Assembly: GCA_039796615.1 (NCBI GenBank)
Contig: JBDKJL010000038.1
Location: forward strand, 78,033-142,032
Length of the DNA: 64,000 nucleotides
From: Candidatus Parcubacteria bacterium
GTDB taxonomy: Bacteria > Patescibacteriota > Patescibacteriia > 2-12-FULL-60-25
Direction: 5' to 3'
The notes beneath the pieces were generated by a model, which saw nothing but the letters and a program-made list of their open reading frames with translations, did no database searches and was not told the origin of the DNA. A program made the translations under genes and the position numbers. This document shows, in pieces, positions 1-51,254 of this stretch. Position 1 is the stretch's first letter. Each line of letters starts with the position of its first letter.

Positions 1-443
1 TGGATGTGCTCGATGAACGGGAGCGTAAAGAGCACCACGATGGCAAGAAACCATCCACGCCGCCAATGCCGTTGTTCCATGAACCATCCAAGCAGGGCGT
101 ACCCTGCCAAAATGGCTGCGCTCGCGGAAAGAATGAACGTGTGCCACAGCGCGGTGTTAAGAAGGTCGAGGCTCAATGCGGCGATAAGAGCGATGGTGAC
201 GGCGCGGGATTGCGTGATGCGTGCGGGGTGACGGTGTCGAAGAAAACAGACAGCCACGGCAAGAATCGCGGCGACGATCACCACATGGATCGGTTGGATA
301 TCCGCTCCGGTGACAAGGCGCCCCAACCAGGCGAGCGCATTGCGAAAAAAGATTGCGAATAAAAAAAGCACCGCTCCATCCGTATACGCCGCAAGGAATT
401 GAACTCCCTTGCGGCGTAGATCGTGCGATGAGATGTGCCTCAT
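1..443 (-). CDS. Polytopic membrane protein, exosortase/archaeosortase-like candidate (N-terminal part only; runs off the window start)
   Basis: It is absent from the ORF track because it has no stop inside the window. My translation from ATG 443..441 reads MRHISSHDLRRKGVQFLAAYTDGAVLFLFAIFFRNALAWLGRLVTGADIQPIHVVIVAAILAVAVCFLRHRHP...LGWFMEQRHWRRGWFLAIVVLFTLPFIEH. It has several hydrophobic helices and an LP(F) motif after a helix, as seen in exosortases. Its ATG overlaps the TGA of the upstream PEP-CTERM gene (ATGA at 440..443). The family call rests on context and topology only. Confidence 0.4.
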   Translation of the reverse strand, partial: MRHISSHDLRRKGVQFLAAYTDGAVLFLFAIFFRNALAWLGRLVTGADIQPIHVVIVAAILAVAVCFLRHRHPARITQSRAVTIALIAALSLDLLNTALWHTFILSASAAILAGYALLGWFMEQRHWRRGWFLAIVVLFTLPFIEHI

Positions 444-3355
444 GACCCTCTGTTGATGGATGCCCGGACAAGTGCCGATACCCGCCGCCGTTGGTGGAAA
501 AGGAGCAGGCCAATTCCGCAGAAGATGAGTGCCCACTCTTCCGGTTCGGGCACGCCGCCCACCGTAAGAGCCGCCTGACCCATGGGGTGATTAAGGATTT
601 CTCCTCCCGTAACATCGAACGTTACCTCAAACGCATCATCCTGCCCCGCCGCTCGTTCCAACTGCTGCTCCTGCCCACGGGTGACGAGTGCGATAAACGA
701 TGAGTAGGGCGTCACGGCCGGAGATTGTTCCACGATACGGTGAATGTCTTCCGCGGGCTTTCCGGCAGCGATGAGTGATCGAGCCCACAGTGCTGTTGCC
801 GTTTTTTGGAGTGGGTCAGGGCCAGCGACGGTGAGCGTGATGTCTCCGGTGAGCCATGGGAGCAAATCATTGGTCGGCATCGCCGTTTTGAGCCATACAC
901 CGTACGCATCGCTCCCGATGACCGCCGTGGGTGCGGTTGAATTTCCGTTTACGGGAAGTGCGAGGTTGTGCAGGGTTTGTGTTGTGCCGAGATGCGCCAG
1001 CGCTTCTTCCGGCGACGACACCACTGCTCCCCGATTGGTAAGGATACGGTGGGTCAACGCATCGTGATATGCCGGGAAGCGGCCATTCGGATGGATGAGG
1101 TAGAGCGGCAAATACTCGGCGTTTGGTTTTGCGATCGTGGTTTCTTCATCTTCTGCGCTCGCGTCTGTCACAAGGAATACGGCGCTGTATCCCGCAGGAA
1201 GGGCATCAAGCGCCCGAATACGATCCGTGCCGCCAAACGGGATGGGCGGCGTGATGTGCGCAACGGATTCCGGTGTAAGGGCGATGCGTTCGCTCAATAT
1301 GGTGTTGAAGTAAAACAGATCCACCGTGTTCCCCTGCTCCGCAAGGCGTGCAAGCGGCATCTGCTCATTAAGGAACGCCGGGATATCGAAATCGCGGTTG
1401 CTGTAAGAGGTGTCGATCATGAGCGCGATACGCTGGCCACGAATTGCCGCGAGCGGATCACCGAGCTCATTCGCACAGCTCCAGGAGCCCTTCATGATCG
1501 GATTTTGGCTATGAGGGATGTACAAGAACATCTGATCCGGCACTCCCGGAACGGGCGTTTGTACCACATTCGTTGGGCAAGGCGTTTGTGTGTTGCGCGC
1601 GATCATGCCGTTTCGTGCTTCTGCGGCGCGACCATCCACGGTGATCCGTTCGATGGTGTGTTGATCACGATACACATTCCGTTCCTCGGCGATAACGGGC
1701 AATGGGATGTCGCGGGTGATATGGGGAACGGTGTACTCAAAGCGGATGCGTTGCGGTTTTATCACGACCCCCTTGTCGACTTCTTCACCCGTTAAGAGCT
1801 GCCCTTCCGGTGGAATCGGGAATACGCGCAAGGTGTATTGTCGCGGCCCCACCTGCTCCAAGAGCGCCGGGTCTACGGGTCGGAGCCGTATTTGATTTTC
1901 GTATGTGCGTCGTGCTGCACCTTTGGGGGCGATCACCCCTTCATATTCCAGTTCCGGCCCAAGCCACAATCCGGTCATCACGGCGGATTCTGGCAGAGAG
2001 AAGGTATAGAAAACCTCTTGAAACTCGTCGGTGGTGTTTGTGTAGGATTCTTCCACCTGCACAACGGCCATGCCGATATCCTCATACATGTTCGCCGACA
2101 CCAAGTGCTCTGCAACATGAACGTGCGTTTCATCACGATCCAGCAAACTCGCTTTAAGCGGATCGCGGGTATTGGTGGAAGAGAGCGCATCGCGAATCGC
2201 CTCCTTTTCTCCATCTTGGATATGCGTGTCGAACAGGGCGCGGTATTGTTTTTCGGCGCGCTCAACGTCGGCGTTAAATGTTCCGCGGTAAATGAAGGGC
2301 GATGCTAAATGGTTGAACAGACGTTGAAACCCTTCCGCATTTTCTTTGGTGAATCCCACTTGGGTTTGGTATCCCTCGGTGAGGATATTGCTCGAGGCAT
2401 CGCCGATATAACGATATTTTGCCAGGTACGCCGTACGAAGATCGCGACGGAGTTCCTCTTCTTCCTGAACAAGGGTGGCGGCGAGTTCCTGTTGCTCGGC
2501 AAAGGTATCAACGTGTTGCGTATTGATGGCTTGATACTTCATCGAGATGTCTTTGCCTGATTGGAGGGAGAGGAGAACGCCGATAAAAATCAGAAGCACG
2601 GTTGCAGCCCCCGTGACGCCGCCCACGACACGCACAGAAAAATGCTTTTGGAGCCGTGTGAGCGTTGCCAAGAAGGATCGCGCGTACAACGTGGTGGTAA
2701 TGATCGGAGAGGCCAGGAAAAATCCAAGAGTGACAATGCCGAGAAGAAGGGAAAAGAGGATGGAGAAAAAGGCCAACCCTTTTGTGTCGACAAGCGTTTC
2801 CCACACGTCCAGATACGGAAAGGAAATAAATCCACGAATAAAAAAGGCAATAATAATTGGAAGGAAGAACAGCGCGAGCAGCGCGCCATACCCAGCAAGC
2901 AGCAACGCCGCTCCTTGGGAAGCGGTATATAGTGCTTGCTGAAGTTTTGTGCGCGCCTGTTCTTTAAAAAGCAAAAAGAGCGTTCCGATCACGCTCACAA
3001 AACTTCCAAGGGTAAAATACCACAATACGGGCGTCATCTGCCGAATGAAGATCATCCGGATAAGCGCCAAAAAAATCAGGGGCATCTCGATGCAAAAGAG
3101 CAACGTAACCAATTTTTTTGGATCTTTTCGCAAACGGGTAAACGCCCCCACGGCGATGGCTGCCGCAGGGGTGAGGAGTAAAATATAGGCCATCACCGCC
3201 ACGTTCCAGGGGATCTCCTGCGCCGCATTTGAAAGTTCTTGGAACAAAAACGGCGCCGTGGTGCTCACGAAAAGCATGTAGATGCCGTTATAAACCCAAA
3301 AAAGGGCATAGAGGAGGTAGCGATTTGTGAAGAAACGGATCAATGCTTGTTTCAT
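440..3355 (-). CDS. PEP-CTERM family integral membrane protein with VIT-like and VWA domains
   Basis: This is a 971-aa ORF. The N-terminal ~270 aa form multiple TM helices. A VIT-like segment follows (FSLPESAVMTGLWLG...YENQIRLRPVDPALLEQVGPRQYTLRVFPIP), then a VWA domain with a MIDAS DxSxS motif (ALMIDTSYS). The C-terminus, GVPEPEEWALIFCGIGLLLFHQRRR, is the PEP motif plus TM helix plus Arg cluster (nt ~443..553). Size and layout match my recollection of the TIGR02921-type PEP-CTERM integral membrane family. Confidence 0.75.
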   Translation of the reverse strand: MKQALIRFFTNRYLLYALFWVYNGIYMLFVSTTAPFLFQELSNAAQEIPWNVAVMAYILLLTPAAAIAVGAFTRLRKDPKKLVTLLFCIEMPLIFLALIRMIFIRQMTPVLWYFTLGSFVSVIGTLFLLFKEQARTKLQQALYTASQGAALLLAGYGALLALFFLPIIIAFFIRGFISFPYLDVWETLVDTKGLAFFSILFSLLLGIVTLGFFLASPIITTTLYARSFLATLTRLQKHFSVRVVGGVTGAATVLLIFIGVLLSLQSGKDISMKYQAINTQHVDTFAEQQELAATLVQEEEELRRDLRTAYLAKYRYIGDASSNILTEGYQTQVGFTKENAEGFQRLFNHLASPFIYRGTFNADVERAEKQYRALFDTHIQDGEKEAIRDALSSTNTRDPLKASLLDRDETHVHVAEHLVSANMYEDIGMAVVQVEESYTNTTDEFQEVFYTFSLPESAVMTGLWLGPELEYEGVIAPKGAARRTYENQIRLRPVDPALLEQVGPRQYTLRVFPIPPEGQLLTGEEVDKGVVIKPQRIRFEYTVPHITRDIPLPVIAEERNVYRDQHTIERITVDGRAAEARNGMIARNTQTPCPTNVVQTPVPGVPDQMFLYIPHSQNPIMKGSWSCANELGDPLAAIRGQRIALMIDTSYSNRDFDIPAFLNEQMPLARLAEQGNTVDLFYFNTILSERIALTPESVAHITPPIPFGGTDRIRALDALPAGYSAVFLVTDASAEDEETTIAKPNAEYLPLYLIHPNGRFPAYHDALTHRILTNRGAVVSSPEEALAHLGTTQTLHNLALPVNGNSTAPTAVIGSDAYGVWLKTAMPTNDLLPWLTGDITLTVAGPDPLQKTATALWARSLIAAGKPAEDIHRIVEQSPAVTPYSSFIALVTRGQEQQLERAAGQDDAFEVTFDVTGGEILNHPMGQAALTVGGVPEPEEWALIFCGIGLLLFHQRRRVSALVRASINRGS

Positions 3356-3390: not shown

Positions 3391-3419
3391 ACTATCGCGT
3401 GTGAACATCGGATTGTCAA
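3391..3419 (-). promoter_or_regulatory. Sigma-70-type promoter candidate for the PEP-CTERM gene
   Basis: The minus strand reads TTGACA (3419..3414), a 17-nt spacer, then GATAGT (3396..3391), about 35 nt upstream of ATG 3355. Confidence 0.35.
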
Positions 3420-3507: not shown

Positions 3508-4071
3508 TCACGCGTATCGCACAATGATTTCGCGCGATTCGCATGGACCGAGCCGCGGAATGATGGTGCCTTCTTCTTTAGGCATCGCGAACTGCTCGAG
3601 GGCAATAAGCAAAAGCTCGTCTCCAAACAGAGCGGCGTGTGTTGCTGTTCGTGGAGACAGAAGTTTTAGCAGTTTAGCCCACGCCTCTTTTGCGTGTTTC
3701 ATGAGGATGCGACGCGCATCTTCATCCGCAAGATACACGTGAGGTGGCTGATCCCCAATGCGTTTGGAGAGGCTCGTGAACAGCTCGCGCCATTTATTAT
3801 TATGCCCCATATAGAACTCTTCTCGATGCAGAGGAAAAAAATCCTCGCCACAGAGATCCATACACACCGCTTCCGTCGTTCTCATGGCGCAGGGTGTTGG
3901 AGAACTTATGACGAGTTGAGGGACAAAGTCCTCTGCTCGCCAGGCTGCCCCAAGCTCTAGGGCTTTCCGGTGACTCTCCGGCGTAAGATCACCGGTGGAT
4001 GGACTCGGATCCTTCGCGAGTTCGCCATACCGGACGAGCCGCACGAGAGCTTTGTCATTTTGTGTTGTCAA
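3508..4071 (-). CDS. Histidine phosphatase superfamily (SixA/PGAM-like) paralogue with a degenerate catalytic motif
   Basis: This 187-aa ORF has N-terminal LVRLVRYGE where the family has RHGE (His replaced by Tyr), and a second-His region TATHAALFGDE. It is paralogous to 4068..4625 and 11925..12461. The TTG start overlaps the upstream stop by 4 nt; an alternative GVR-proximal GTG start is possible. Confidence 0.55.
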   Translation of the reverse strand: MTTQNDKALVRLVRYGELAKDPSPSTGDLTPESHRKALELGAAWRAEDFVPQLVISSPTPCAMRTTEAVCMDLCGEDFFPLHREEFYMGHNNKWRELFTSLSKRIGDQPPHVYLADEDARRILMKHAKEAWAKLLKLLSPRTATHAALFGDELLLIALEQFAMPKEEGTIIPRLGPCESREIIVRYA

Positions 4072-4625
4072 GGGATGCTCCTTTCTGTGTCCAGACTGAT
4101 CGTGAGCTCATACGTTCCACCTTTCGCGATCCGCAGCGTCAGCGCTGTCGAGTCTTTTTTGCCGCTGACATACCAGATGGTAATGGGAAGGAACGCCGCA
4201 TGACCGACGACCGCGACGCGGCGATCATCCGGTTTGAGTTGACCCAGGATATACCTCGCGGCCGCTGCCCCGTAGGCATTTATGATGGGTTCAAGCTGGG
4301 CGTCCGCAAGCTGCATAGACAACGTTGCGTTCTGGGGGAGACGCTCAAATCCTGACAACAGCTGTTCGCGCCACTCTGGGTCTTTACCGAAATAGAGTGC
4401 GTCCGCGAGATTAATCGTCACGCCCTCCGGGCATACGGCTACCGCCGTTTCTATTGCTCGTATCGTGCGGGACACGATAACAGTATCCGGAACAAAACCC
4501 TCCCGTTGCCAGAGCGCTCCAACGGCTTGTGCCGTTTCACGACCAGCGGGAGAAAGTGACCGGGCGAAATCATTTGCGCCCGGAAGGGCATCCGCGTGGC
4601 ACACGAACCGGAATGTTCTTTTCAA
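4068..4625 (-). CDS. Histidine phosphatase superfamily (SixA-like) protein, non-canonical CHA motif
   Basis: This 185-aa ORF has FRFVCHADA...SLSPAGRETAQAVGALW at the N-terminus, where the family has RHG/RHA, and a VAVVGHAAFL second-His motif. It aligns by eye with 11925..12461. Confidence 0.6.
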   Translation of the reverse strand: MKRTFRFVCHADALPGANDFARSLSPAGRETAQAVGALWQREGFVPDTVIVSRTIRAIETAVAVCPEGVTINLADALYFGKDPEWREQLLSGFERLPQNATLSMQLADAQLEPIINAYGAAAARYILGQLKPDDRRVAVVGHAAFLPITIWYVSGKKDSTALTLRIAKGGTYELTISLDTERSIP

Positions 4626-11924: not shown

Positions 11925-12461
11925 TCAGAGGTTTGGGAGTTCGATTTGGAACCACTCGCATTCGCCGAGGCTGATGTCGAGTATATGATCGTCCTCGCCA
12001 CTCAAGTAGTAGCCAATGCCTACGGCTAGAATGGCGTGCCCAAGGACCGCGACATCCTCGAAATCTTCGGGTTCACTCTCCTGAATTTTTTGGAGGATCA
12101 CGCCGCCTCCCACCGCAGCATATTCGAGTATCGCTTGTTTCGCGGGGGAGTTGAGGTAGTCACGCAATGGTGCGTACTGCAGTGTGGCAAAGGCGAGGTT
12201 CATCGCCTCCGTCCATGCGGGGTTGAGCCCGAAATATAGCTCTTCCTGCACGAACTCGGGAGGGCGCCCGATGGCGATTTCTGTGGTGCGGCAAGCTCGT
12301 GGAGCCGCTGATGCGAGGACGATACGCGGAGAAAATCCATCTGCTCTCCACTGCTTACCGAGTTCTTCGGCTTGCAGGGTTCCTTTGGCAGAAAGCGGAC
12401 GATCTCTGTCGTTTTTGGCCTGTTCTGTGTGCGCATGGCGCCCGATGCGAATTCTTTTCAA
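11925..12461 (-). CDS. Histidine phosphatase family protein, SixA-like (candidate phosphohistidine phosphatase)
   Basis: This 178-aa ORF has N-terminal IRIGRHAHTEQ...RPLSAKGTLQAEELG (RH catalytic dyad) and a VAVLGHAILA second-His motif. Size and layout are those of SixA-type short histidine phosphatases. Confidence 0.7.
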   Translation of the reverse strand: MKRIRIGRHAHTEQAKNDRDRPLSAKGTLQAEELGKQWRADGFSPRIVLASAAPRACRTTEIAIGRPPEFVQEELYFGLNPAWTEAMNLAFATLQYAPLRDYLNSPAKQAILEYAAVGGGVILQKIQESEPEDFEDVAVLGHAILAVGIGYYLSGEDDHILDISLGECEWFQIELPNL

Positions 12462-12580: not shown

Positions 12581-14080
12581 TTAGGCGCGTTTGAGAACGG
12601 TCACGGTTCCCTTATTCGCGTCTACTTCTACAAGATCACCATCTTTAATCACTTTTGTGGCGATTTTTGTGCCGATGATGCAGGGCTTTTTCATTTCGCG
12701 GGCAACGATGGCGGCATGGCAGGTAATTCCTCCCTCGTCGGTAACGAACGCCGCCGCTTTTTGCATGGCGGGGAGATAGTCCGGGCGGGTCATCACGGCA
12801 ACCACGATGTCCCCTTCTTGCACCTTATTGATCTCTTCAACGCTTTCCAAGATGCAGGCGCGGCCTTGAGTAATTCCTTTGCTCGCCACAAAGCCTTTTA
12901 GCGATTGCCCTTCGGCGTGCGAGGTGTTTCCGGTGCCGATGAGGTCGAGTGTTTTAATGAGTGTTTGATCCGTTGTTACGTCGTAGATATCTTTTTCCCA
13001 AAAAATGATGCAGTACTCAATCCGTCGATCCAGTTCGGCGGGATCGATGCGTTCTGCGAGGATGTCGGGGATTTCGGGCGGGAACGCATATTTGAGCTGC
13101 TCAAGTGTGTAATGAGTGCGATTCGCGATCTCCTCCAGCAGAAGACTGAAATAGTGCGTCGCCCAGAACGTTCCTTTTTTTCGTTCATCCTGCCAGGCGT
13201 TCATGTCGTCTGTGATGCGTAAAAGCGTGATGAGCTCTTGCGGAAGCTCGAGCGTATGGATGAGTGCATCTTTTTCAGCGCGATGGGTGGTTGCGAGGGA
13301 TTGAATGGTGGCGATACGTTCATCGATTTTTTCTCCCAACATCTTTTCTAAACGGGCGTCGAAAAACGCCTCATCCAACATGTGGTCTTTAACGTAATTA
13401 TTTTGGATCCAGAAAAAGGAATCCCGATGCGCGCGTATCAGCGCTTGCCGCTGGGATGGATCGGCTTGAACCTGTTTTGCGATCGCAAGGAGCGCGATCT
13501 CTTCCTCTTGTAAAAAGGAGGTGAACACGGGAGCGGTGAGCGTGGCGAAGGATTCTACAAAGGAATGCGCCATCCCGCGTGTTTCCAAGTGCTCTTTGAT
13601 TTTTGAAGCGATCAACGCGTCCGTGCTCAGGGAAAACCCGTCGATGAGCGGTGAGGCGTTGAGCTTTTTTGTGTAAATATCCGCCAACTGTTCGTACGCA
13701 GCACGAAGGTCCGCCGTGCTCCACGCCGCACGGTTTGCCTGGGCGATCGCCGCGCATGCCGTGTAGAATTGTTCTTGCCAGGGCAAGAATGCCTGAACGA
13801 TTTTTTGGCTTACATCCGGATCGTGTGTTGCCGCCTCGATCATTTGTGAGGCCGTGTATGTGAGCTCTTCCAGGCTGTGATACCAATCTGCACGATTTTT
13901 TGAGAATCCAGCATAAGCCAGGCGTTGCCCGAATGGGTATGTGGTGTCTTGGATGCTCGAGATATGGGCATCCCCCAAAAAGAACATGAAGTGCGGGCAC
14001 GCATCAAAGCGTTGCCGGTACCATGTGGCCTTTTCGATCTTCTGCATCCGTTCCTGAATGAGTCCGATATGTTGTTTCAT
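12581..14080 (-). CDS. Single-module protein: unassigned helical domain plus PEP-utilising-enzyme mobile (swivel phosphohistidine) domain
   Basis: This 499-aa ORF ends in GFVASKGITQGRACIL...VVAVMTRPDYLPAMQKAAAFVTDEGGITCHAAIVAREMKKPCIIGT...DGDLVEVDANKGTVTVLKRA. It has no ATP-grasp domain and no TIM barrel. Its ATG lies 3 nt after the stop of the giant gene. Confidence 0.85.
   Translation of the reverse strand: MKQHIGLIQERMQKIEKATWYRQRFDACPHFMFFLGDAHISSIQDTTYPFGQRLAYAGFSKNRADWYHSLEELTYTASQMIEAATHDPDVSQKIVQAFLPWQEQFYTACAAIAQANRAAWSTADLRAAYEQLADIYTKKLNASPLIDGFSLSTDALIASKIKEHLETRGMAHSFVESFATLTAPVFTSFLQEEEIALLAIAKQVQADPSQRQALIRAHRDSFFWIQNNYVKDHMLDEAFFDARLEKMLGEKIDERIATIQSLATTHRAEKDALIHTLELPQELITLLRITDDMNAWQDERKKGTFWATHYFSLLLEEIANRTHYTLEQLKYAFPPEIPDILAERIDPAELDRRIEYCIIFWEKDIYDVTTDQTLIKTLDLIGTGNTSHAEGQSLKGFVASKGITQGRACILESVEEINKVQEGDIVVAVMTRPDYLPAMQKAAAFVTDEGGITCHAAIVAREMKKPCIIGTKIATKVIKDGDLVEVDANKGTVTVLKRA
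12584..12895 (-). repeat. Swivel phosphohistidine domain copy 9 (in the downstream satellite gene)
   Basis: The catalytic His codon of GGITCHAAIV is at 12716..12718. Domain limits are approximate. Confidence 0.8.
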
Positions 14081-14083
14081 AGG

Positions 14084-17000
14084 TTAGGCGCGTTTAAGAA
14101 TGGTAACGGTGCCGGTGTTCGCGTCCACTTCTACCTCATCCCCATCGTGGAGAGCTTGCGTGGCAACTTTGGTTCCTACAAGGCAGGGTTTTTTGAGCTC
14201 GCGGCTCACAATGGCCGCATGAGAGGTGAGACCGCCGGTATCGGTGAGGATGGCGGCGGATTTTTTCATCGCAAAGACGTATTCCGGGGATGTCATGGGC
14301 GCGACCAATATTTCGCCATCTTGGAAGGTTGCTTGTTCGGGATCGAGTAAAATGCGCACCTTGCCCGTGGCTTTACCCGGGCTTGCGATGGTACCGTGAA
14401 AGGAATCCACAAGCGCCTCAAATTTTTCTTGCGCAAAGATTTCCCAATAGTGTTTTGCATCCGCTTCGTGAAAACGCTCCACGCGGTGAACACCATGGAA
14501 CCCTCCATATGAACGTAGAGTGACGCGCTGTTTCTCCCGGATAACACGTGGAATTTCGTCCCAGAACAGGTCGAGAAGGGCGTCGGCATCATTCCCGGTG
14601 CGTCGTGCCGCTTCTTGCAGAAGAAGATATTTGTAATGCAGGCCGATAAAAATATATTTTTTGCGTTCGTCTTGCCACTCAATATTTTTAACAGCCGTTT
14701 CGGCGATATGCTGGATATTCTTATTTAATTTGAATTTTTTGATGCACGCCGTTTTTTTCTTCTGGACGTCTTTAAGACGTGCGGCCGCCGCATCGTCAAA
14801 ATCCTGCGGAATCTCCTTTTTCCGCTCGCGGAAAAATTCTTCGTCTAAGACGCGTACGCCCCCATAGCTATTTTTGAGCCAGTAGTATTTTTTAGCGTGT
14901 GCGGAAATATTTTGTGTTTTGAGGAGCTCGCTCTCCTCTTCTTGGTAGAACGACGCCTCTTCCGGCGCTAACAATACTTCCATGGCTTCTTTGCGTTCTT
15001 TCTCTTGAGGGATGACGTGCGCAAGCTCCGTTTCAAGTAACACATCTGCCCCATAGTTTCCAAGTTCCGGTGGAATAGTGGGTGTCCAGAAGGCGATCAT
15101 CTTTTGATGGTAGTCCGTCCACAGGTCGAGGAACGCGTCATCCGAAAGAGATGTAATGTCGAGTGTATCTATGCGCTGCTGTGTTTTTTCGAGTACCGCA
15201 ATAGCCTCTTTCCATTCTGCATACAACCCTGCACGAAACGGCTCATCAAGCATCTGCGTTTGGAAAACGCGTACGGCCTCTTTTTGCAGAGAAGGAAAGT
15301 CGTTAATCCACACCATACGCTTTTCATGGAACAGCATGAGCCACTCTGGCCAGGGGTATCCGAACCGTTTTTCGAGCATCTCACCACATTCCGTAATAAA
15401 CTCCGACACGAAAAACACGCGTCCCGGCACAGGCCCCCATCGGAATACATTCTTCCCTGCTGGAATACTGACAGGTGTGGAAGATGGATACTCGGTGGAT
15501 GCGCGATGCAGAATTTTGATGATGCCGGTGTTCGCGTCCACCTCCACTTCATCTCCGTTATGGAGCACTTGGGTTGCGATTTTGGTGCCGATGATGCAGG
15601 GCTTCTTCATTTCGCGGCTTACGATGGCCGCGTGGGAGGTGATACCGCCGCTATCGGTAACGAATGCGGCTGCTTTTTGCATGATCGGAACGTAGGCGGG
15701 CGTTGTTTCGGGCGCAACGAGAATCTCGCCTTCTTGAAATGCTTCCATTTCATTTGGCATAAACATCACACGGACAATCCCGGCAACGCGGCCTTTGTTT
15801 GCGATAGATCCCTTAAACGTCGTAATCGCTGTTTCTTGTTTGGGAATAAATTGATCTACAAATGCCTGGAGCTCTGCTCCGGTAACCACAACGATACGGC
15901 CTTGGTGCATAAACGCCCCATGGCCAACTTTTCGTTTTTCAATTTCTGCCGCGTTTGCCTTGATCCCTTGTTGGCACCATTCGATAATTTCTTGGTGCGT
16001 GAGCCAAATAAAATCCTCGTAAGAGATTCCAAGCTTTTTAGACAAATGAGAAAAAAGTGGCCGCGCGGCGTAGCTTACGCGATTCACCGTTTCGGCCGTT
16101 TGTAATCGAAGCCATGCAAATAATCGGGCGACTTCGAGGGCGAAGTGAAGATCCGGGGCGTCGCTTATCGATGCCTTGTGGATTGGCGCGTCTGTGACGG
16201 TATTTATATCTTCGATGAGTCGCTGCGCCGTGTAAGGCGTTCCCCAAAAATGGTGCGTCCCCACCCAGGCGTATGTATCAACTAACTGTTGGAGGCGCTG
16301 ATAGAGCGCGGGATCGTTTGCCTGTAAGCGACCCAACGCTGCGTCGTCCATGTGTTTGTAGCCGTGATTTTCCAAATCCTCCCGGAAGGAAAGAAGCTCC
16401 TGTTTCTGCTCCATGGAAAACGTTTTTCGATCTGGATGCATGTGGCCGGACAGTTCTTCGAGCGCATATCCGTGCTTCCGTGCCGTTTCGGTAATGAAGT
16501 CTTGACCAACATCTCCGATGTAAAAAATCCCGGCCCACGAACCCGTAATCTGGTGGTAGCGGTTAAAGAATTCCCGGAACAATGCGACAGGTTCTTCATC
16601 TGTGAAACGCTCCAGCCTGTCGATGAGTTCCGTGAAGTGATTCAGTGCCTTTTCTGAACGGGCGACATATTCCTGGAAAAAGGAAATATCGTTGATTTTT
16701 AATTTTTCTTTTGTGAGTGCCTTGATCGCGTGGCTACTTTTTGCATCAAAGAATCCGTGCCCGTCGAACGTGAGCACCTCGCCAGTTACCTGGATCCCGA
16801 ACGCTTTTAATGTCTCCCCCTCCCCCCACTGGAACCAGGGCGACCAAGCAAGCGTAGGGCCTTTCCATTGACCCATGTAAACGTAATCCTCTTTACGGAA
16901 AGAGGGGGCGTCTGGAGTATGACGTTTAAGAATTCGAACAATGCCGTTGTTTGCGTCTACCTCCACTTCATCGCCATCCTGCAGTGTATGCGTTGCCGTT

Positions 17001-20000
17001 CTGGTGCCGATGATGCACGGCTTATTTAGTTCGCGCGAAACAATGGCCGCGTGGCAGGTGATCCCCCCTTCGTCGGTGACAATGGCCGCCGCCTCGCGCA
17101 TGAGGGGGACGTATTCTGGACGGGTCATCCCCGTAACGAGGATTTCTCCAAATTGAAAAGAGGAAAACTGATCCAAAGATTTAATCACGCGGACACTCCC
17201 CCGGGCGTACCCCTTATTTCCGATGCTTCCGTGGATTTCGTTTGTGCCTTTCTCGGTTTCGCCGACGAATGCCTCATGGATGAGCTTGGCGTTTTCTTCC
17301 ACGCGGTCGTATGAAATCTCGATTGGTCCAGAATATGGAACGTACACGACATATTCCTCCTCCCGTTTCAGGAGTTCATCTTTGATGGAGGCGACGTAGG
17401 AGGATCCTTGAATGAGTTCCTGGCATGGCAAAATATTTTCGATGAGTTTTCGATCCACTCCCGCTTCTTGGAACAGGCGTTCTGCAATGCGCCATGCGAC
17501 GGTAATCCCCTTTGCGAAATGATTTTTTCGTTCATCGCGTGTTTGCATGACCGTTTGGCAATAACGCACAATGAGCGCCTGCTCTGCGGAAAGCGTACGG
17601 ATCCAACGGTTAAAGGCGTCTTTTTTCTCTGCCTGCTCATGATCCATGTATGCAAGCTCCGCGCGGGCATGCTCTATATCATGAAGGAAGGCGCCGTATG
17701 TTTTTTGAAGTTCTTCACGGACCTGCTCCAATGCGTACACGTTTCGATAGGATGTCCAGAAATATTGGCATGACTCCAGGAGCGTTTCTTCGGGCTCTTT
17801 CGCAATAATCCGACAAAGGAGGTCGCGTTTTTGTGCTCGATCGAACGATTCGGCAACCATCTCTGTTGCGCGTTGCCAAATCGTTTCAATATCCTGTCTT
17901 GAAATGTTGAGATTGGCCGACTGTACGACATTCCAGCACAAATCAATATCAAAAAAGAGGGAAAAATGTGACCACGCGTTTGTTTCCCAGAACTGATCAA
18001 ACGCATGTTGGATGGTCGCTACGAGTGCGGATTCTGGTTGATTTTTAATGTATGGACATCGATACGTTTCATAAAGCGCATCAACCGTTGGGAAATTTTT
18101 ATGAAATTGTTCTAAGCGTCGTTCAAGCGATGAGGGATCTTTTAAAAACGTTTCAAATCCTTCTATGGCGTAACAGGGAAACGTTTTTTCGGGAATCAAT
18201 GTTTGCGTTTGTCCATGATGCCTAATATTGATGAGCCCGTAGTTTACCCCGCAGTGAAAAACAGGGCTGTAGTATTTTTCCGTGTTGTATCTAGACCCAA
18301 AAATAAAGAGGGAGTAATTGTGAAGCGGAGGGTAGATTTTATCCCCGCCGAGTTCATCGATAAATTTTTGCGCGAGAAGCTTTTGCTCACTTTGGCGAGA
18401 CAGAATACGTACGATTCCATTGTTCGCATCCACTTCTACCTCATCCCCATCCTGCAACACCTGTGTGGCGATTTTTGTGCCGACAATGCAGGGTTTTTTG
18501 AGTTCGCGCGCCACGATGGCGGCGTGGGAGGTGATGCCACCGACGTCGGTGATGAACGCGGCCGCCTTTTTCATGGCGGGGAGTAGTTGCGGGCTGGTGG
18601 CGGTAGAGATGAGAATATCCCCCTCCTCTACCTTCCCGTTATGTTGCGGGCCAAACACGAGCTTTACCGTTCCGCGTGCAGTACCCGATTGCGCCACCTG
18701 TCCTTTGAGTTCGCCGTTATTTTCTGTTTTTGGGGGTATCACGCGCGTTTTCACATACGCATCAGCCTCGCTCCCCGTGATGACCGCACAACCATCTCCA
18801 TTTTTAATAATCACGGCATGTTTCCATCGTTCTTCCAAATTTGTGGGGAGAGATGCCGCGCCCTCGATCACGGCAATGAGCTCTTGCGCAGTGAGGGTGC
18901 CAAGAAGCCGCACCGGAACATTGTATTCTGCCGCCAGCCGCTTGAGCATGCGGTTTACGATCACAAATAGGGCTTGTCGGGCTTCTGTGCGGATGGTTTT
19001 GATGAAGATGATGTCTCGCACGGTGCGGAATAGCTGTGCTTCCTGTTCCGTGAGTGCGAGCTCTTTTTGCAGTGCGGCGTGTGGCGCTTTCGGTGAGGGC
19101 GCTACGGATTCACGGATATGCGCGATCTGTTCATCTGTAAGGCCTGTGCCGATGTACCCTTGATCCAACCAGAAGTATTTTTTTTGCAATTCCGCGCTTG
19201 AGGCACTGCTCTGACGGATATCCGCATACGCTTGTTCGGTATGGCTGAGCGCTTCGGGCGCGCCAAGAACGGTAGCGTAATAGGAGGCGGGATGCGGCAG
19301 ATTTTTCCGTTGTGCGAATACGCTCATGAGCCGCTCTGTTACGGCGCCGAAGACATCGGCGAAGGCAACCACCATGCCAAAGCGTGTACAATCTGCCTGG
19401 ATTTCGTAGGCGCGCGCAAGGATCGCCGGATAGTTGGATACGGGGCAAACTTCTATCTGCTCTCGAACCTCGTTCGCATACGCCCAAATCTCATTTGAAT
19501 GCGTGATGGTTTTTTCTTTTAGTTCATCGAGTAACGGTCGGTTGGTGAGCACGGCGTCTGCGCACGTTTGGATGAGCGTTCGAGAAGGCTCCTCCTCTGT
19601 GTAATAGTTAATCACGCTCCCGTTCACCACTTCTAAAAAAGCATCTGGTTCCGACAGACCGATCTGCTCCTTGATGCGCGTATCACGCACCCCTCTCCAG
19701 ACGTTCTCCAGCGTGAGCACGGATGTGTCGACATCTTGGTTGATGCGTGTGTAGGTGCGGTTTTTTGATTCGGCATTTTGCGCACGGTTTAAAATACGCA
19801 CAACGCCGTTATCCGCATCCACCTCCACCTCATCGCCATCATGTAGTGCTTGTGTGGCGATTTTGGTGCCGATGATGCAGGGCTTTTTCATTTCACGAGC
19901 CACGATGGCGGCATGGCAAATAACGCCGCCTTCGTCTGTAACGAACGCACTCGCGCGCTTCATGGCTGACAAAAAATCCGGTGTTGTCATGGGCGCAACC

Positions 20001-23000
20001 AAGACATCCCCTTCTTGAACGTGCACCATGTCGCTTTGTTTCTTTACGATTTGCACACGCCCCCGTACGATTCCTTTATAGGCCACCTGACCCGTGATCG
20101 TGTCGGACGTAGAGATGGCGGTCTCTTTATACGTATATTCTGGATGACTCTGGCCGAATGCCTCGAGTGTCCCGCGGTAATGCTCCGTTCCGTCGATCAT
20201 CACAAATGCCTGCAGCCGCTGCTTCAGCTCTTCTTCAGACGGAAGCGCGTTTAATTCATGTGGGAGCACCACGCCCGCCAGCTCCTCAGAGATGCCTCCA
20301 AGATGGGCGATCATTTTTCTTACAAAAAGATCATTTTCTGCAAAGAAATCCGTGTCTTTTCTTGATTGTACGGAGATCGCTTTTGCGGCATCCGGGCTAC
20401 GGTCATCCAATCCTGAATAAAAGAACAGCGTGAGTTTGAAGATCGCATCGTAAATCAAGTCCGTATATTCTTTGATATCCACGACGTCTGTGAGAGGTCC
20501 CTTTGAGCGTAATTGCGCAAGCCGTACGAGCGGTGCTTTATACGCACGAGCGAGCTCTTCTAAAAATGCCGGATTGGCATTCGCGGATAGGAGTTTTTCC
20601 TGGAACCAGTTGAAGGCTTTTTCGTGTTCCCAAATTTCTACAACCCCTTGATGAACATAATGCGTTAGCATCGGCGGAAACGGATTTTCCCAGCCGAGTG
20701 TTGATTTAATCTGTTCCGTTAAACTCTTTACCCACAACACCTGCATGAAGAGCGTGGTGTCACGGGAATAGGATTTTTTGAAGACGGCTTTTTTATCTGC
20801 TTCTGTGCGTTTCAAAATCCGCACAACGCCATTATTCGCGTCCAACTCCACCTCATCCCCATCTTTGATGGCCTGTGTCGCGATTTTTGCGCCGATGATG
20901 CATGGCACATTGAGTTCGCGGCTCACGATGGCGGCATGGGAAGAAATACCTCCTTCATCGGTGATGATGCCGCCTGCCTTGCGCATGAGGGGGACAAATT
21001 CAGGCCGCGTCATCATGGTGATGAGGATGTCACCCCGCTGTAATCGTTTTGCGGCCGGGCTATCTGGCGATGGCACGATGCGCGCGATTCCTTTGACGTA
21101 GCCTTGGCATGCGACGGCGCCTTTGATTTCATCGACATCTGTACGTGGGAGACGCTTGCAGAGGCGTTCAAAGAGCTCTGTCGCCTTATCCCCCTCAAGA
21201 TACGAGATGTTATTTTCGTGATAGATCGCAATAATCCCCTCGCGTTCGCGACGCTTGAGCATTTCGGCATCGATAGATCCTAAAAAGACGTCTTTTACCT
21301 CGTCGAGTGTGAGATCATTTAGGAGTGCGCGATCGATTCCCTGTCGTGCAAGGCCTTCACAAACGAGTCGCGTACAGCCATAAAGGCCGACATAATTGAA
21401 TCGCTTACGGTCATCACGCCAGATAGCGAGCGTTTGAAAAATTTCAAGAGGGTTTTCTTTTAATCCATGTTTCTTGAGAATTTTTTGTTGCTTTTTTGTC
21501 GGCGAAACGAACGGATGTACGTGGACGTCTTTTGCCTTCTCCCGCAGCCATTGTTCGTCGATTTCTTGGAACGTTTCGTAATCCGTACCGATCCAAAAAA
21601 ATTCGTTCAGGAATGCCTCCGCCGATTTCTTTCCCGCATTGAGGTCTGCGAGTGCCTGTTCAAGCTCTGTCACATACGATTGTTCCTGTGGCATGAGAAG
21701 ATCTGCGGCTTCTTGAGCCGAAAATCCATGCTGCTGCACGATACGGTGGATTTCTTCCTGATCAAATCCGGGATCAAATGAATCGAGGAAAAGGGAAATC
21801 CCCCACATTTCCTGATCTTTTTTGAGAACGGTTTGAAACCGCTCCCAAAGCTCTTCGTTGGTGAGTGTTTTGAGATCCGCTCGCCAGATTTCATGAGACG
21901 CCTCAAATAAGGCTTGTTTCAACCGCTTCCATTCCGTTTCCCATTCGGGTGGAAAACCGTTTTTTGTTCGTTCAAAAAAGGCGTCTGCGACCTGCTTCAT
22001 CCCCGCTAAGTCAAATAAGTTTGTGACGTGTTTTTCTTTGTAATACACACACCAATTCCCGTATCCGATGGAAAGGTATTTTTTAACTCCTTCAAATGAG
22101 GTAAGAGGATACGAAATTTGATGGAATCCGATTTTACCTCCTTGACGGTAGAGGGGGGCTTCTTGTGAAAAGGCTTCGTTGCCCGCCGCTTTTTTGAAAA
22201 TTCGCACAACGCCGTTGTTTGCATCCACTTCTACCTCATCTCCGTTATGGAGTATTTGGGTCGCGATGTTGGTGCCGATGATGCAAGGCTTTTTGAGTTC
22301 TCGGCTTGCGATTGCGGCATGGGATACGATCCCTCCTTCATCAGAAATGATCGCTGCGGCACGTTTCATGCCGACAATAAAATCCGGAGTGGTTGTACTC
22401 GCCACGAGGATTTCTCCTTCTTTGACCGTATTTGCATCCTGACGATTGCGTACGATGCGGACGTATCCACGCGCAACGCCAGGATAAGCGGAGACACCAC
22501 GGCACTCTGTCGCGGATGGATCTGCTGTGGGGATGACCAATTGGATGCGCTTTTGCATCTCTTTCATCGCCTCTCCGGTGAAAACGCCTTGCGGTGTGAT
22601 CAAATACCCCTGCGCACGTTCTTGTAGGGTTTGTGCTGAGGGCGCATGACCCGTTGTGCATTCTTCGACGGTCAGGAGGTCGCGATATTGAACGGGTACA
22701 CCTGTGAATTGGGCAATGGAGTTGCGGAGGACTGCATCGGCTCCTGGGATCATCTTTTCTCCGCGACGACGGAACGTCATGAGGCGTTCTACGATGTCTT
22801 TTTTTGTCGGTTGGTGCTCAAGATTTTCGATCCCCCACCAAACTCCCGTATACCATGACCATACGATTCGTAGTGCTTCGATAAACGACGCGAGTTCTTT
22901 TTGTGTGAGCGCGGATTCTTTTTGAACGATCTGCTCAACGGCGTCGTAGGCCTCGTTTGCGTATTTTAGAAGCCACTCGATATAAGACGCGTCTTGCTCG

Positions 23001-24214: not shown

Positions 24215-25690
24215 CTAGGCGGCTGTGCGGCGTAAAATCCGAACGGTTCCGTGGTTTGCGCGAACCTCCACCAGGTCACCATCGTTAATCGCCTGCGTGG
24301 CGGTTTGTGTGCCGATCACACACGGCTTTCCGAGCTCTCGTGAAACGATGGCGGCATGGCAGGTGATCCCCCCTTCGTTTGTGATAATGGCCAACGCTTT
24401 TTTCATGAGCGGCACAAACTCCGGGCGGGTCATGCTGGTAACCAGAATCTCTCCTTCCTGGAACGATGGGAAATCCGCTTCCGCTAAAATCACGCGCGCG
24501 ATGCCCTTTGCGTACCCCTGCGAGGCGGTTCGGCCATAGAGAATATCTTGCGCGGCGGCACCGGCGAACGCTTGTTCAAGATCAGCGTTGAGCGATTGCG
24601 CTTCTGCGCCCTCAAAGAGCGTTGCGTCTTCTGAAGTTACACGGATCACGACGCCTTCTTCATATCGGTGCTTGAGCGTGTCTGCGGTTAACGACCCATC
24701 GAGGACCTGATCTATTTCGTGCATGGCCAGGAATCGAAGGAGGCGATTCGCGATGCCCGTTTGTTTTTCGAGGTGTACGAGATACGCCTCAATCACATGA
24801 AACCCCATCAGGTTGATTTTTTTACGATGTTCGCGCCAGGCCGTGAGCGCATTAAAAAACCAGAGTGGATTTTCTTTTAATCCATGCGTTTTCGTAATGG
24901 CACGAATGGACGCTTCTTTTGTGGTTGTATAGGCGCGGAGTTCGGCGAGATCTTGTTGGAGACGGTGAGAGTCTCCGGCATAAATGCGCGCTTCATCAAG
25001 AATTTCTTGATCCGTAATTGGTTTAAGACGCGCGTAATTTGCTTGGACGTAATCGAACTGCTGCCGATACGACGTGAGAATGTCTTTGTGCGTGATAAGG
25101 AGGCTATCAAGCATCTCTGGGGAGATCTGAATTTTTTGCAAGAGTTCCAAAAAGGCTTGTTTGCGTTCGTCCGCAAACGTCATTTCGGATGGTGTGGAGA
25201 GGACTTGGACCTCTTCTTTGTTAAGCCCGTGCTGTTCGGCAATTTTTTTGATCTCTTCTTGATCGACGCCAGTATCGAATGCGTCGATAAAAAGGCTCGA
25301 ATCCCAAAAAGCGTGGTAGGCGGTACGGAGTTGTTGAAATGTTTCTCGTGCCGTTGTGGTATCTGCGAATACGGATGGATCGAATGTTTTATGGTAGAGC
25401 GTTTCGATGGCTTGAGCGTGTGCGAGATAGGCTGCATATTGCGTTTGATAGCCCTCTTGCGTGCCGTATTGTTGATAATAGAGCCGAGCGAGATGTTGGA
25501 GCGCCTCAAAATCCCAATACAAAACGCCGTATGTTTTTTGGAAAAACGCATGGAGATCTCCGAACGCGCCACGCTCTCCATTGGCGTTGAGCGCGAATGA
25601 GCCCGCAACATCCATCCATGGCCAGCAGGTGATGGGCATGATTTCACCCTCTTGTTTATAGAGTTTTTTGGGGAGAGGGCGGGGTGTCAT
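24215..25690 (-). CDS. Single-module protein: unassigned helical domain plus swivel phosphohistidine domain (upstream satellite)
   Basis: This 491-aa ORF ends in GRTASQGYAKGIARVIL...ILVTSMTRPEFVPLMKKALAIITNEGGITCHAAIVSRELGKPCVIGT...DGDLVEVRANHGTVRILRR. It stops 39 nt before the start of the giant gene. The exact start is uncertain. Confidence 0.85.
   Translation of the reverse strand: MTPRPLPKKLYKQEGEIMPITCWPWMDVAGSFALNANGERGAFGDLHAFFQKTYGVLYWDFEALQHLARLYYQQYGTQEGYQTQYAAYLAHAQAIETLYHKTFDPSVFADTTTARETFQQLRTAYHAFWDSSLFIDAFDTGVDQEEIKKIAEQHGLNKEEVQVLSTPSEMTFADERKQAFLELLQKIQISPEMLDSLLITHKDILTSYRQQFDYVQANYARLKPITDQEILDEARIYAGDSHRLQQDLAELRAYTTTKEASIRAITKTHGLKENPLWFFNALTAWREHRKKINLMGFHVIEAYLVHLEKQTGIANRLLRFLAMHEIDQVLDGSLTADTLKHRYEEGVVIRVTSEDATLFEGAEAQSLNADLEQAFAGAAAQDILYGRTASQGYAKGIARVILAEADFPSFQEGEILVTSMTRPEFVPLMKKALAIITNEGGITCHAAIVSRELGKPCVIGTQTATQAINDGDLVEVRANHGTVRILRRTAA
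24218..24535 (-). repeat. Swivel phosphohistidine domain copy 1 (in the upstream satellite gene)
   Basis: The His codon of GGITCHAAIV is at 24356..24358. Confidence 0.8.
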
Positions 25691-30690: not shown

Positions 30691-31734
30691 CTAATTCTTG
30701 ATCGCATCATCCTGTTCCAGATATCTCTTTGACGCCTTATCGAAATCGGATATGTAGTCGCGGTCTTGAGCGGCATTGTATTTTTTATATTCGCCAAGAG
30801 CCAAGGACTCAGCGACTTCGTGTGTAACCACACCTGCGTTCGTTAGGATTTGTTTTTCATTGAATTGTAAAAAGGCATGCAATTTTTCAACCCAATCTTT
30901 CATGGACATGGTGACGCCATGCTTCGCTTGCATCTCGGCGTAATCTAAATACATGGTAACGATCCTGTTCAAATGATCGAGTTCATTCTCATTTAAATAG
31001 TTTTTCGCGATCACCACGTCTGATTCTCGGATTCTGCCCTTCGGTGCGTTTTTCCACGTTGTCAGCCCCATGTTGATTTGGGTACTATCGGCTCGTTCCT
31101 TCACGATCTCTGCAGCCGTTTTACCCGTGATAGCGAAATGGAGCTTGTTCTGTACGGTTGCGTAAAACTGTTTGGTGAGATCGTTATCCAAAGAATAGTC
31201 AGCACTGCATTGAGCGTAGATGTCGGTAATCTTTTGGTAGAGACGCCGCTCACTCGAGCGAATGTCTCGGATGCGAGCGAGCTGTTCTTCGAAGTAATCT
31301 TTACCAAAAATATGACGAGGATCCTTTAATCGTACGTCATTCATGGTGTACCCCTTGATGATGTACTCTCGGAGTCGTTCTGTCGCCCAGATACGGAATA
31401 GCGTCGCCTGACGGCTATTCACCCGGTACCCAACCGAAATAATGGCGTCAAGATTATAAAATTGAGTTTGGTACGTTTTGCCATCCGTTGCAGTACGTGC
31501 AAATTTTGCACTAACTGAATTTTCGATTAATTCTCCTTCTTTTAAGATGTTCCCAAGATGTTTTGTAACGACCGAGCGTTCAACCCCAAATAATTGAGCG
31601 ATTTTATCTTGCGTGAGCCAAATATTTTCATTCTTGAGAAATATCTCCACGTTTACCCCACCCTCCGGCGTTGTGTAGAGAATGACTTCTGTAAATGAGT
31701 TTTCTGGGATGGCTTTTTTGGGTTTTTTCTGCAT
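30691..31734 (-). CDS. RhuM family (virulence-protein-like) protein
   Basis: This 347-aa ORF contains IWLTQDKIAQLFGVERSVVTKHLGNI...DGKTYQTQFYNLDAIISVGYRVNSRQATLFRIWATERLREYIIKG, which is characteristic of RhuM/PF13310 as I recall it. Confidence 0.75.
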   Translation of the reverse strand: MQKKPKKAIPENSFTEVILYTTPEGGVNVEIFLKNENIWLTQDKIAQLFGVERSVVTKHLGNILKEGELIENSVSAKFARTATDGKTYQTQFYNLDAIISVGYRVNSRQATLFRIWATERLREYIIKGYTMNDVRLKDPRHIFGKDYFEEQLARIRDIRSSERRLYQKITDIYAQCSADYSLDNDLTKQFYATVQNKLHFAITGKTAAEIVKERADSTQINMGLTTWKNAPKGRIRESDVVIAKNYLNENELDHLNRIVTMYLDYAEMQAKHGVTMSMKDWVEKLHAFLQFNEKQILTNAGVVTHEVAESLALGEYKKYNAAQDRDYISDFDKASKRYLEQDDAIKN

Positions 31735-51190: not shown

Positions 51191-51254
51191 AAAGGTTAGT
51201 TCGTATAGTAAAAGCTTAGGGTATGGATTCGTAGAAGTCAATTATATTCTTCAT

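Follow-up and report, generated by a model that had tools for sequence, protein, structure and literature searches.

A probable dedicated exosortase O and PEP-CTERM substrate gene pair in a Patescibacteria genome

Can an exosortase and a single PEP-CTERM protein form a self-contained sorting system in a bacterium of the Patescibacteria (Candidate Phyla Radiation, CPR)? The question is raised by one end of a 64,000-nucleotide stretch of Candidatus Parcubacteria contig JBDKJL010000038.1 (hereafter the window), where the minus strand carries a gene for a 971-residue membrane protein with an apparent C-terminal sorting tag (440..3355) that runs into the start of a second membrane protein gene (1..443). 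An original prediction, made from the letters of the window alone, took the two for a sorting target and its cognate exosortase and regarded the pair as a possibly unusual system. We consider it probable that a single exosortase serves a single substrate here, as a dedicated system encoded in a CPR genome. By sequence, the pair is a divergent addition to two catalogued, purely computational families, TIGR02921 for the target and TIGR04489 (exosortase O, XrtO) for the enzyme, and not a new kind of system. Three features set the locus apart: a CPR host, overlapping genes in inverted order, and a minimal context.

The junction between the two genes reads ...agagggtcATGAggcac (tcATGAggc) on the minus strand, where the TGA of the target (442..440) shares its TG with the ATG of the following gene (443..441), and the predicted ATGA overlap at 440..443 is therefore present. 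The frame opened by this ATG stays open for 147 codons to the window edge and encodes about five hydrophobic segments, consistent with the at least four helices originally counted there. By itself, this 5' part of the XrtO gene (1..443, minus strand) scores 29.8 bits against TIGR04489 (E 2.5e-7; cutoff 250). The gene is completed on a public contig (JGI 3300043413, hereafter L001), one of two contigs returned when we searched with the exact protein sequence. L001 equals the window at all 13,355 shared bases and reaches 9 kb beyond window position 1, with the complete XrtO gene at its positions 12913-14448 encoding 511 amino acids. The complete protein passes TIGR04489 (285.9 bits, E 5.2e-85, cutoff 250), the exosortase/archaeosortase signature TIGR04178 (33.3 bits, cutoff 23) and Pfam Exosortase_EpsH (PF09721; 68.6 bits, cutoff 25.7). 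Extension of the contig thus bears out the second gene as the candidate for the cognate exosortase.

The complete enzyme also retains the residues expected of a working exosortase. In an alignment of 69 sequences, C194-S195-G196, N237, R240 and H261 are invariant (all lie outside the window, on L001), and C194, R240 and H261 constitute the Cys/Arg/His set that defines the exosortase/archaeosortase superfamily. The protein comprises a polytopic membrane core, one extra transmembrane helix and an external EpsI-like domain, and the latter contains an HxPExC motif (residues 399-404) that is invariant in the same 69 sequences. Its resemblance to EpsI is likely, although below threshold in the window's protein; a precomputed match to the EpsI model PF11984 exists for 4 of 32 XrtO homologs. 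A structural model of a 50% identical homolog (P0216) has a pLDDT of 78, and a Foldseek search with it returned no PDB match below E 0.05.

The first gene of the pair encodes a member of the TIGR02921 family, which had been named as a comparison at the outset and of which Nostoc Alr1390 is an example. The 971-residue protein scores 389.3 bits against the NCBIfam model (E 4.1e-116; best stretch residues 15-573; cutoff 200), and with 389 bits against a curated model chance is not an issue. Its AlphaFold2 model, built on 30 homologs, has a mean pLDDT of 83.6 and a pTM of 0.79. The multi-spanning N-terminal domain of the original prediction (residues 1-263; 2567..3355) is resolved by hydropathy, positive-inside analysis and AlphaFold2 into seven long transmembrane helices (12-44, 50-72, 79-102, 109-130, 137-178, 194-236 and 241-263). 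Downstream of it, the model contains a helical region (residues 267-392), a VIT beta sandwich (412-520), a second beta domain (535-615), a VWA-like domain, an alpha/beta C-terminal domain (810-905), a disordered linker (926-937) and the helix of the sorting tag (938-954), all encoded on the minus strand. The VIT-like domain that had been proposed is recognized above cutoff by Pfam (PF08487; residues 429-519, 1799..2071; E 1.6e-11, 44.8 bits against 26.5). The most conserved motif of the TIGR02921 family, DPALLEQVGPRQYxLRVFP, lies within it, with invariant columns 496-513 in the 30 homologs.

The VWA domain (approximately residues 640-800; 956..1438) requires more care. The original prediction had recognized it from the metal ion-dependent adhesion site (MIDAS) motif DTSYS (residues 648-652; 1400..1414), and the MIDAS residues are D648, S650, S652, T710 and D731. 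Four of these (D648, S650, S652 and D731) are invariant in the 30 homologs, and T710 is present here and variable across the family. The TIGR02921 family profile matches VWA2 (PDB 5a8j) at E 2.8e-4 and PDB 8s05 at E 6.6e-5. The best PDB match of the target model in Foldseek is inter-alpha-inhibitor heavy chain 1 (ITIH1; 6FPY) at E 1.5e-12 over about 645 columns, with weaker matches (E 1e-3 to 2e-2) to the VWA domains of integrin (beta3), Cav alpha2delta and CMG2. Pfam, in contrast, finds no VWA domain: with the E limit raised to 10, residues 625-810 still match no Pfam family. Neither the helical linker nor the C-terminal domain has a significant Pfam match. The VWA assignment therefore holds by fold, family profile and invariant residues, as a divergent domain.

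This architecture is fixed. Out of 1.84 billion sequences searched, just 369 cluster representatives match residues 1-400 of the target, and among the 150 matches listed about 120 are 850-1,315 amino acids long and match near their N terminus; the shorter ones may be fragments. Other architectures carrying the N-terminal domain, which could have served as a clue to function, were not seen among those 150, and the fixed arrangement therefore provides no independent clue. We also considered the seven-helix domain as a degenerate exosortase and rejected this on a profile-profile (hhalign) probability of 0.4%.

The predicted topology is the one that a C-terminal sorting tag requires. Loops 71-85, 129-142 and 215-242 of the target are rich in lysine and arginine and alternate with acidic loops. 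The positive-inside analysis therefore places the N terminus inside, has the seventh helix exit outward, and leaves residues 262-935, including the VIT and VWA domains, outside with the RRR cluster inside.

The tag itself ends the protein as ...GGVPEPEEWALIFCGIGLLLFHQRRRVSALVRASINRGS, that is, VPEP, a 13-residue hydrophobic stretch, RRR and then 13 further residues. We annotate residues 935-958 (482..553, minus strand) as a PEP-CTERM-type sorting signal consisting of VPEPEEW, the transmembrane helix ALIFCGIGLLLF and an HQRRR cluster, followed by a 13-residue cytoplasmic tail (VSALVRASINRGS; 443..481, minus strand) that is helical in the model. Many PEP-CTERM family models have ends that align exactly to residues 935-958. 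P936, E937 and P938 do not vary among 30 homologs whose identity to the window's protein is 25-47%. The extension past the basic cluster had been viewed as a possible sign of a simple terminal anchor. Most of about 90 homologs carry 5-15 residues in this position, and the 13 residues seen here are normal for the family and no anomaly.

If the two genes form a system, they should travel together. A scan of one genome per species (GTDB) recovered more than 541 relatives of the target, from which the best 80 loci were kept. An XrtO gene is directly adjacent on the same strand in 43 of these 80 species-representative loci and in 4/4 further contigs of the window's own clade. Consecutive enzyme and target genes across genomes are the criterion by which dedicated systems have been recognized (PMC3237569). 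The window's clade consists of eight loci (L001, L003-L005 and L083-L086), and the target comes first and XrtO after it in all of them, with a spacing of -8 to +6 nucleotides. Four junctions are 4-nucleotide overlaps (ATGA in three, GTGA in one), one is an 8-nucleotide overlap and one a 1-nucleotide gap; in L004 an ATG lies 5 nucleotides past the target stop, and in L005 the XrtO start is not evident. In the other lineages with an adjacent XrtO, the enzyme gene is upstream of the target in 36/39 loci and overlaps the stop-to-stop open reading frame of the target in 3/39. The closest homologs of the target (34-47% identity) form a group with 35-72% identity within it, and the clade shares 23-31% (target) and 17-27% (XrtO) with other members. 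The neighbours of the pair differ in every clade contig (ribosomal proteins, valyl- and histidyl-tRNA synthetases, phosphoglycerate kinase, fructose bisphosphatase, transketolase halves and a penicillin-binding protein), and target and XrtO are therefore the sole conserved unit. Pairwise identities of target and sortase correlate with r 0.98. This is a sign of joint inheritance only and is not counted as physical interaction, because any two vertically inherited genes would correlate.

The type of tag follows the presence of the enzyme. A PEPxxW[ALMIV]L tag occurs in 47/47 loci with an adjacent XrtO (the 43 and the four further contigs) and in 0/28 loci that lack XrtO despite adequate flanks; the latter end in PEPSGG, PEPGxxxG, PEASGGW or PEPxxW[LF][GS] (Fisher's exact p 3e-21, uncorrected for shared ancestry). 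Two loci combine the XrtO-type tag with no XrtO, and both are cut at a contig edge where the gene would lie. This co-occurrence is the strongest evidence here that XrtO would read the tag of its neighbour. As for other possible substrates, neither the 64-kb window nor the adjoining 9 kb (about 73 kb together) nor three related loci contain a second PEP-CTERM-like tail.

The host is a CPR bacterium. The window encodes dnaG, rpoD, uvrB, gltX and the alpha and beta subunits of ATP synthase, and the UvrB protein shares 78% identity with one from Candidatus Uhrbacteria and 72-77% with many proteins labelled 'Patescibacteria group'. Among the best 80 of the more than 541 relatives, the named homologs closest to the window's target come from Magasanikbacteria and Gottesmanbacteria metagenome-assembled genomes (MAGs). 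The gene pair has a GC content of 54%, against 52.8% for the window. The sequence was found in three DNA metagenome runs only (freshwater, aquatic and groundwater), and the same run search recovered no RNA run that holds the sequence of the pair.

Several observations nevertheless weigh against a dedicated pair. No exosortase lies within 6 kb in 37/80 family loci (Nostoc, Calothrix, Leptolyngbyaceae, 'Moduliflexus' and others), so that a neighbouring enzyme is not a constant feature of the family; where XrtO is missing, TIGR02921 members presumably depend on a general exosortase. Shared ancestry inflates the statistics for co-occurrence and correlation, many of the loci being from Microcoleus. 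The evidence for a single target covers about 73 kb of the genome. On the enzyme side, the EpsI model PF11984 reaches 14.0 bits (E 0.041) on XrtO residues 323-511, against a cutoff of 26.1. A literature search found no paper that mentions XrtO, TIGR02921 or TIGR04489. Finally, the generic PEP-CTERM model TIGR02595 gives the target tail 15.6 bits, 0.4 below its cutoff of 16, and the PEPxxWA-CTERM model NF035944 gives 21.4 bits when the tail is scored alone and 16.5 when the whole protein is, against 35, so the PEPEEWAL of the target fits the name of that motif and not the cutoff of its model. The original prediction had made its sorting signal depend on PEP-CTERM thresholds, and by the letter of TIGR02595 the tail falls short. 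We do not take this as refuting, because the tail of the closest homolog (P0002) scores 17.7, above the cutoff, P-E-P is invariant across the homologs, the tag subtype tracks the presence of XrtO, and tails past the basic cluster are normal in the family. For comparison, two tails tested from family members with a classical PEP tag reach 28.2 (P0036) and 19.1 bits (P0022, a Nostoc protein with a PEPSGG-type tail). The failure is a borderline one of the generic model only.

The same shortfall speaks for a reading in which the C terminus simply anchors the protein in the membrane a second time and escapes cleavage, the XrtO homolog being its stable partner, chaperone or scaffold and not a protease. 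The 13 residues past RRR would suit such an anchor, the seven N-terminal helices mean that cleavage would not release the target, and cleavage of this protein is a prediction. We nonetheless find this account unlikely: P-E-P is held constant while the adjoining helix varies, the Cys/Arg/His triad is invariant in all 69 XrtO sequences and argues for a working active site, the tag changes subtype exactly where a neighbouring XrtO is absent, and an extended tail is the family norm. One could instead accept the chemistry and question the exclusivity, with XrtO acting as a general exosortase for many PEP-CTERM proteins and its adjacency to this target being incidental or marking the first of several substrates. 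Classical exosortases do act on many targets, the median number per genome being 8 (PMC1569441), and only the roughly 73 kb noted above speak to the number of tails in this genome. That small chance is countered by the lack of another PEP-type tail in the window, the L001 extension and three related loci, by a two-gene unit that is the sole conserved element over eight contigs with different neighbourhoods, and by the joint occurrence of XrtO and the PEPxxW[ALMIV]L tag in several phyla. Adjoining genes for an enzyme and its single target are, moreover, a published hallmark of dedicated systems (PMC3237569; bioRxiv 10.1101/2023.06.07.544157).

A CPR origin of the pair could also be doubted, since most of the more than 541 family members in species-representative genomes are cyanobacterial and one clade member (L005) is labelled Gastranaerophilales; the pair would then have arrived recently by horizontal transfer from Cyanobacteria or another diderm, or would be a chimera created in assembly. 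This we regard as very improbable. The same arrangement occurs on two independent assemblies (one JGI, one Logan), the contig carries CPR-like housekeeping genes, the GC content of the pair matches that of the window, and the clade has its own gene order and is far more similar within (35-72%) than to other lineages (23-31%). Together these features therefore indicate long residence and not a recent transfer. The dedicated, CPR-encoded pair remains the reading that we prefer.

Under that reading, we propose the following course of events, by analogy with better known sorting enzymes. The seven N-terminal helices would insert the 971-residue protein into the cytoplasmic membrane and display about 670 residues outside, namely a helical stalk, the VIT domain, the second beta domain, the VWA domain with its MIDAS and the C-terminal alpha/beta domain. 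The PEP-CTERM helix would make a second pass through the membrane and return the chain to the cytoplasm, where RRR would be located. XrtO would then recognize the PEPEEW[A/L]L variant of the tag and is predicted to cut the chain at PEP or close to it, on the external side of the membrane. As in sortase A and archaeosortase A, a thioester might form on Cys194, from which the new C terminus would be passed to a putative envelope acceptor. The processed target would not be released, because its seven-helix domain stays in the membrane. Processing may instead remodel or cross-link a ligand-binding module at the surface, or may free one end of an ectodomain anchored on both sides, or re-attach that end elsewhere; the module may serve in ligand binding or adhesion.

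How does this pair relate to systems already described? Its nearest counterparts are the other TIGR02921 and XrtO (TIGR04489) pairs, with which it shares passage of the curated cutoffs, the fixed architecture of seven transmembrane helices, VIT, VWA and PEP-CTERM, an XrtO with the triad and an additional C-terminal domain, and same-strand adjacency. It differs in host, as the others belong to Cyanobacteria, Bacteroidota, Myxococcota and Proteobacteria, and in layout, as the window's clade has the target and then the sortase, overlapping or nearly touching, whereas elsewhere XrtO is mostly upstream. The classical PEP-CTERM/XrtA (EpsH) system likewise features a tripartite tag of PEP, helix and basic cluster and an enzyme of the superfamily with conserved Cys, Arg and His. 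There, however, many targets each carry a signal peptide and no internal transmembrane helix, and the genes occur in outer-membrane bacteria with exopolysaccharide (EPS) clusters (Haft 2006, PMC1569441). The window's pair has a single, polytopic target, its host lineage is described as monoderm, and no EPS genes lie within 10 kb on each side, as the original prediction had noted for the adjacent genes. The XrtA model gives the complete XrtO 31.5 bits against a cutoff of 208.

VIT-VWA proteins recur as the sole cargo of sorting enzymes, including LPXTG proteins with a dedicated sortase, GlyGly-CTERM proteins with rhombosortase, and PEP-CTERM proteins (PMC3237569). This recurrence bears on the window's pair by analogy only. 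XrtN with TIGR04477, the Gram-negative dedicated sortase with the marine sortase target TIGR03788, MSEP-CTERM with TIGR04286, and GlyGly-CTERM with rhombosortase all have a cargo with a VIT and VWA ectodomain and a C-terminal tripartite tag, encoded beside its own processing enzyme, as in the window. The tail of the window's protein aligns locally to the end of the XrtN-target model, but the target as a whole scores far below the cutoffs of TIGR04477 (30.9; 250), TIGR03788 (24.6; 551.65) and TIGR04286 (22.9; 150), and does so over the VIT region only. The cargos of these four systems have a signal peptide and are not known to have a seven-helix N-terminal domain.

Two more distant parallels concern the chemistry. 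The best structural match of the target, ITIH1 (PDB 6FPY), covers both VIT and VWA. ITIH chains lose a C-terminal propeptide, and the new C terminus is covalently transferred to a glycan, which parallels the proposed cleavage and transfer as an analogy and not as evidence of a shared mechanism. Identity to the target is 10-12% at a TM-score of about 0.34. ITIH lacks a membrane domain, and it is processed by unrelated enzymes and chemistry. Archaeosortase A, which acts on PGF-CTERM proteins in Haloferax volcanii, belongs to the homologous superfamily, in keeping with the TIGR04178 match of XrtO. It is, to our knowledge, the only branch for which cleavage and lipid attachment have been demonstrated by experiment, and it operates in cells without an outer membrane. 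It differs in being archaeal, in its PGF tag and in its many targets, which include the S-layer protein; the ArtC model gives the complete XrtO 20 bits against a cutoff of 100.

The host raises the matter of the envelope. CPR bacteria are ultra-small and, by description, have no outer membrane. They have been placed in a monoderm clade with Chloroflexi (bioRxiv 10.1101/2021.05.31.446380), and the in silico work that defined bacterial exosortases in 2006 places PEP-CTERM only in outer-membrane bacteria with EPS genes (PMC1569441). A literature search returned no paper on exosortases or PEP-CTERM proteins encoded by CPR genomes. The XrtO and TIGR02921 pair, with a PEPEEWLL tag, is also present in two loci (L026 and L065, from Anaerolineae and Chloroflexota MAGs) of the Chloroflexota, which are likewise described as monoderm, and the departure from an 'outer membrane only' rule is therefore not confined to CPR. 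It is conceivable, though doubtful, that XrtO in CPR covalently attaches the VIT-VWA C terminus to a component of a monoderm-type envelope (lipid, peptidoglycan or S-layer) and so holds an adhesin-like MIDAS module on the cell surface, perhaps to attach the bacterium to a host cell. If true, exosortase chemistry would be independent of outer membranes and exopolysaccharide. We know of no identified acceptor for the cleaved exosortase substrates of bacteria, and the compact, translationally coupled CPR pair would then be the simplest available system for finding one. With two overlapping genes, one substrate and no conserved accessory genes, the pair is minimal enough to be a clean test system, and the strict co-occurrence of PEPxxW[ALMIV]L with XrtO amounts to a concrete, testable specificity rule. 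Both families are already named by annotation pipelines.

The window contains other envelope-related genes, all on the minus strand and all more than 45 kb from the exosortase pair. They encode an 815-residue protein with a SpaA_2 domain, a prealbumin-fold type that takes its name from Gram-positive pilins (48794-51241), a CAP-domain membrane protein (54325-55728) and a WecG/TagA-family glycosyltransferase (56781-57503). We regard these families as typical of monoderm envelopes.

Closer to the pair, a DrrA-like ABC ATPase gene (L001 14476-15384) starts 27 nucleotides after the XrtO stop and is followed by an ABC-2 permease gene (L001 15387-16157), beyond window position 1. No terminator-like site was found between XrtO and these two genes on L001, and XrtO and the ABC genes are possibly co-transcribed in the window's genome. 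We considered the transporter as a component of the system and rejected it, as no homolog adjoins the pair in seven related contigs; the sole weak ATPase match (L084) belongs to an FtsE/FtsX-type pair that lies on the other strand, about 3.4 kb upstream. On the other side, a promoter-like site, TTGACA-17-GATAGT, lies 36 nucleotides upstream of the target ATG (3391..3419, minus strand; L001 9937-9965). The evidence for it is weak, and such sites are no commoner in the region than in shuffled sequence. Directly upstream of the target are two tandem paralogs of 187 and 185 amino acids (3508-4071 and 4068-4625, minus strand) that overlap by 4 nucleotides. The second has a weak match to the histidine-phosphatase family His_Phos_1; the first, called as 117 amino acids on L001, lacks such a match, and only its sequence resemblance marks it as a paralog. 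A third gene of this kind is located at 11925-12461.

Two of the loci carry labels at odds with their content. L005 (JANQEB010000289.1) is the clade member labelled Gastranaerophilales; it has the target-XrtO order of the CPR clade and a target 37% identical to the window's protein. L030 (CAZGVO010000004.1) is labelled Bifidobacterium and has the layout and tag (PEPHEWVL) of a Bacteroidetes locus (L018). Both may be mis-binned contigs or transfers.

Elsewhere in the window, a minus-strand open reading frame of 3,363 amino acids (14084-24175) contains the N-terminal, ATP-binding domain of pyruvate,phosphate dikinase and, after it, the PEP-utilizers mobile phosphohistidine domain in seven copies, which together score 571.9 bits. 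It is flanked by two paralogs (12581-14080 and 24215-25690), each about 495 amino acids long and with the same C-terminal domain. A PEP-utilizer protein with seven swivel domains is unusual.

Finally, a minus-strand region at 33108-33520 contains a group I intron (Rfam RF00028, 85.9 bits, 33155-33432), directly followed by what appears to be the 3' half of a tRNA, with a T arm GGTTCGAATCC, an acceptor stem and CCA. A short open reading frame in the 5' part of the intron ends in ...CANCHREVHAG..., an HNH-like motif. ARAGORN reports no tRNA anywhere in the window, and by its sequence the region looks like a tRNA gene split by an intron with a homing endonuclease. About 1.4 kb from it, a minus-strand gene (30694-31734) encodes a RhuM-family 'virulence protein' (Pfam PF13310, 352 bits), and its proximity to the intron-split tRNA may mark a mobile island.

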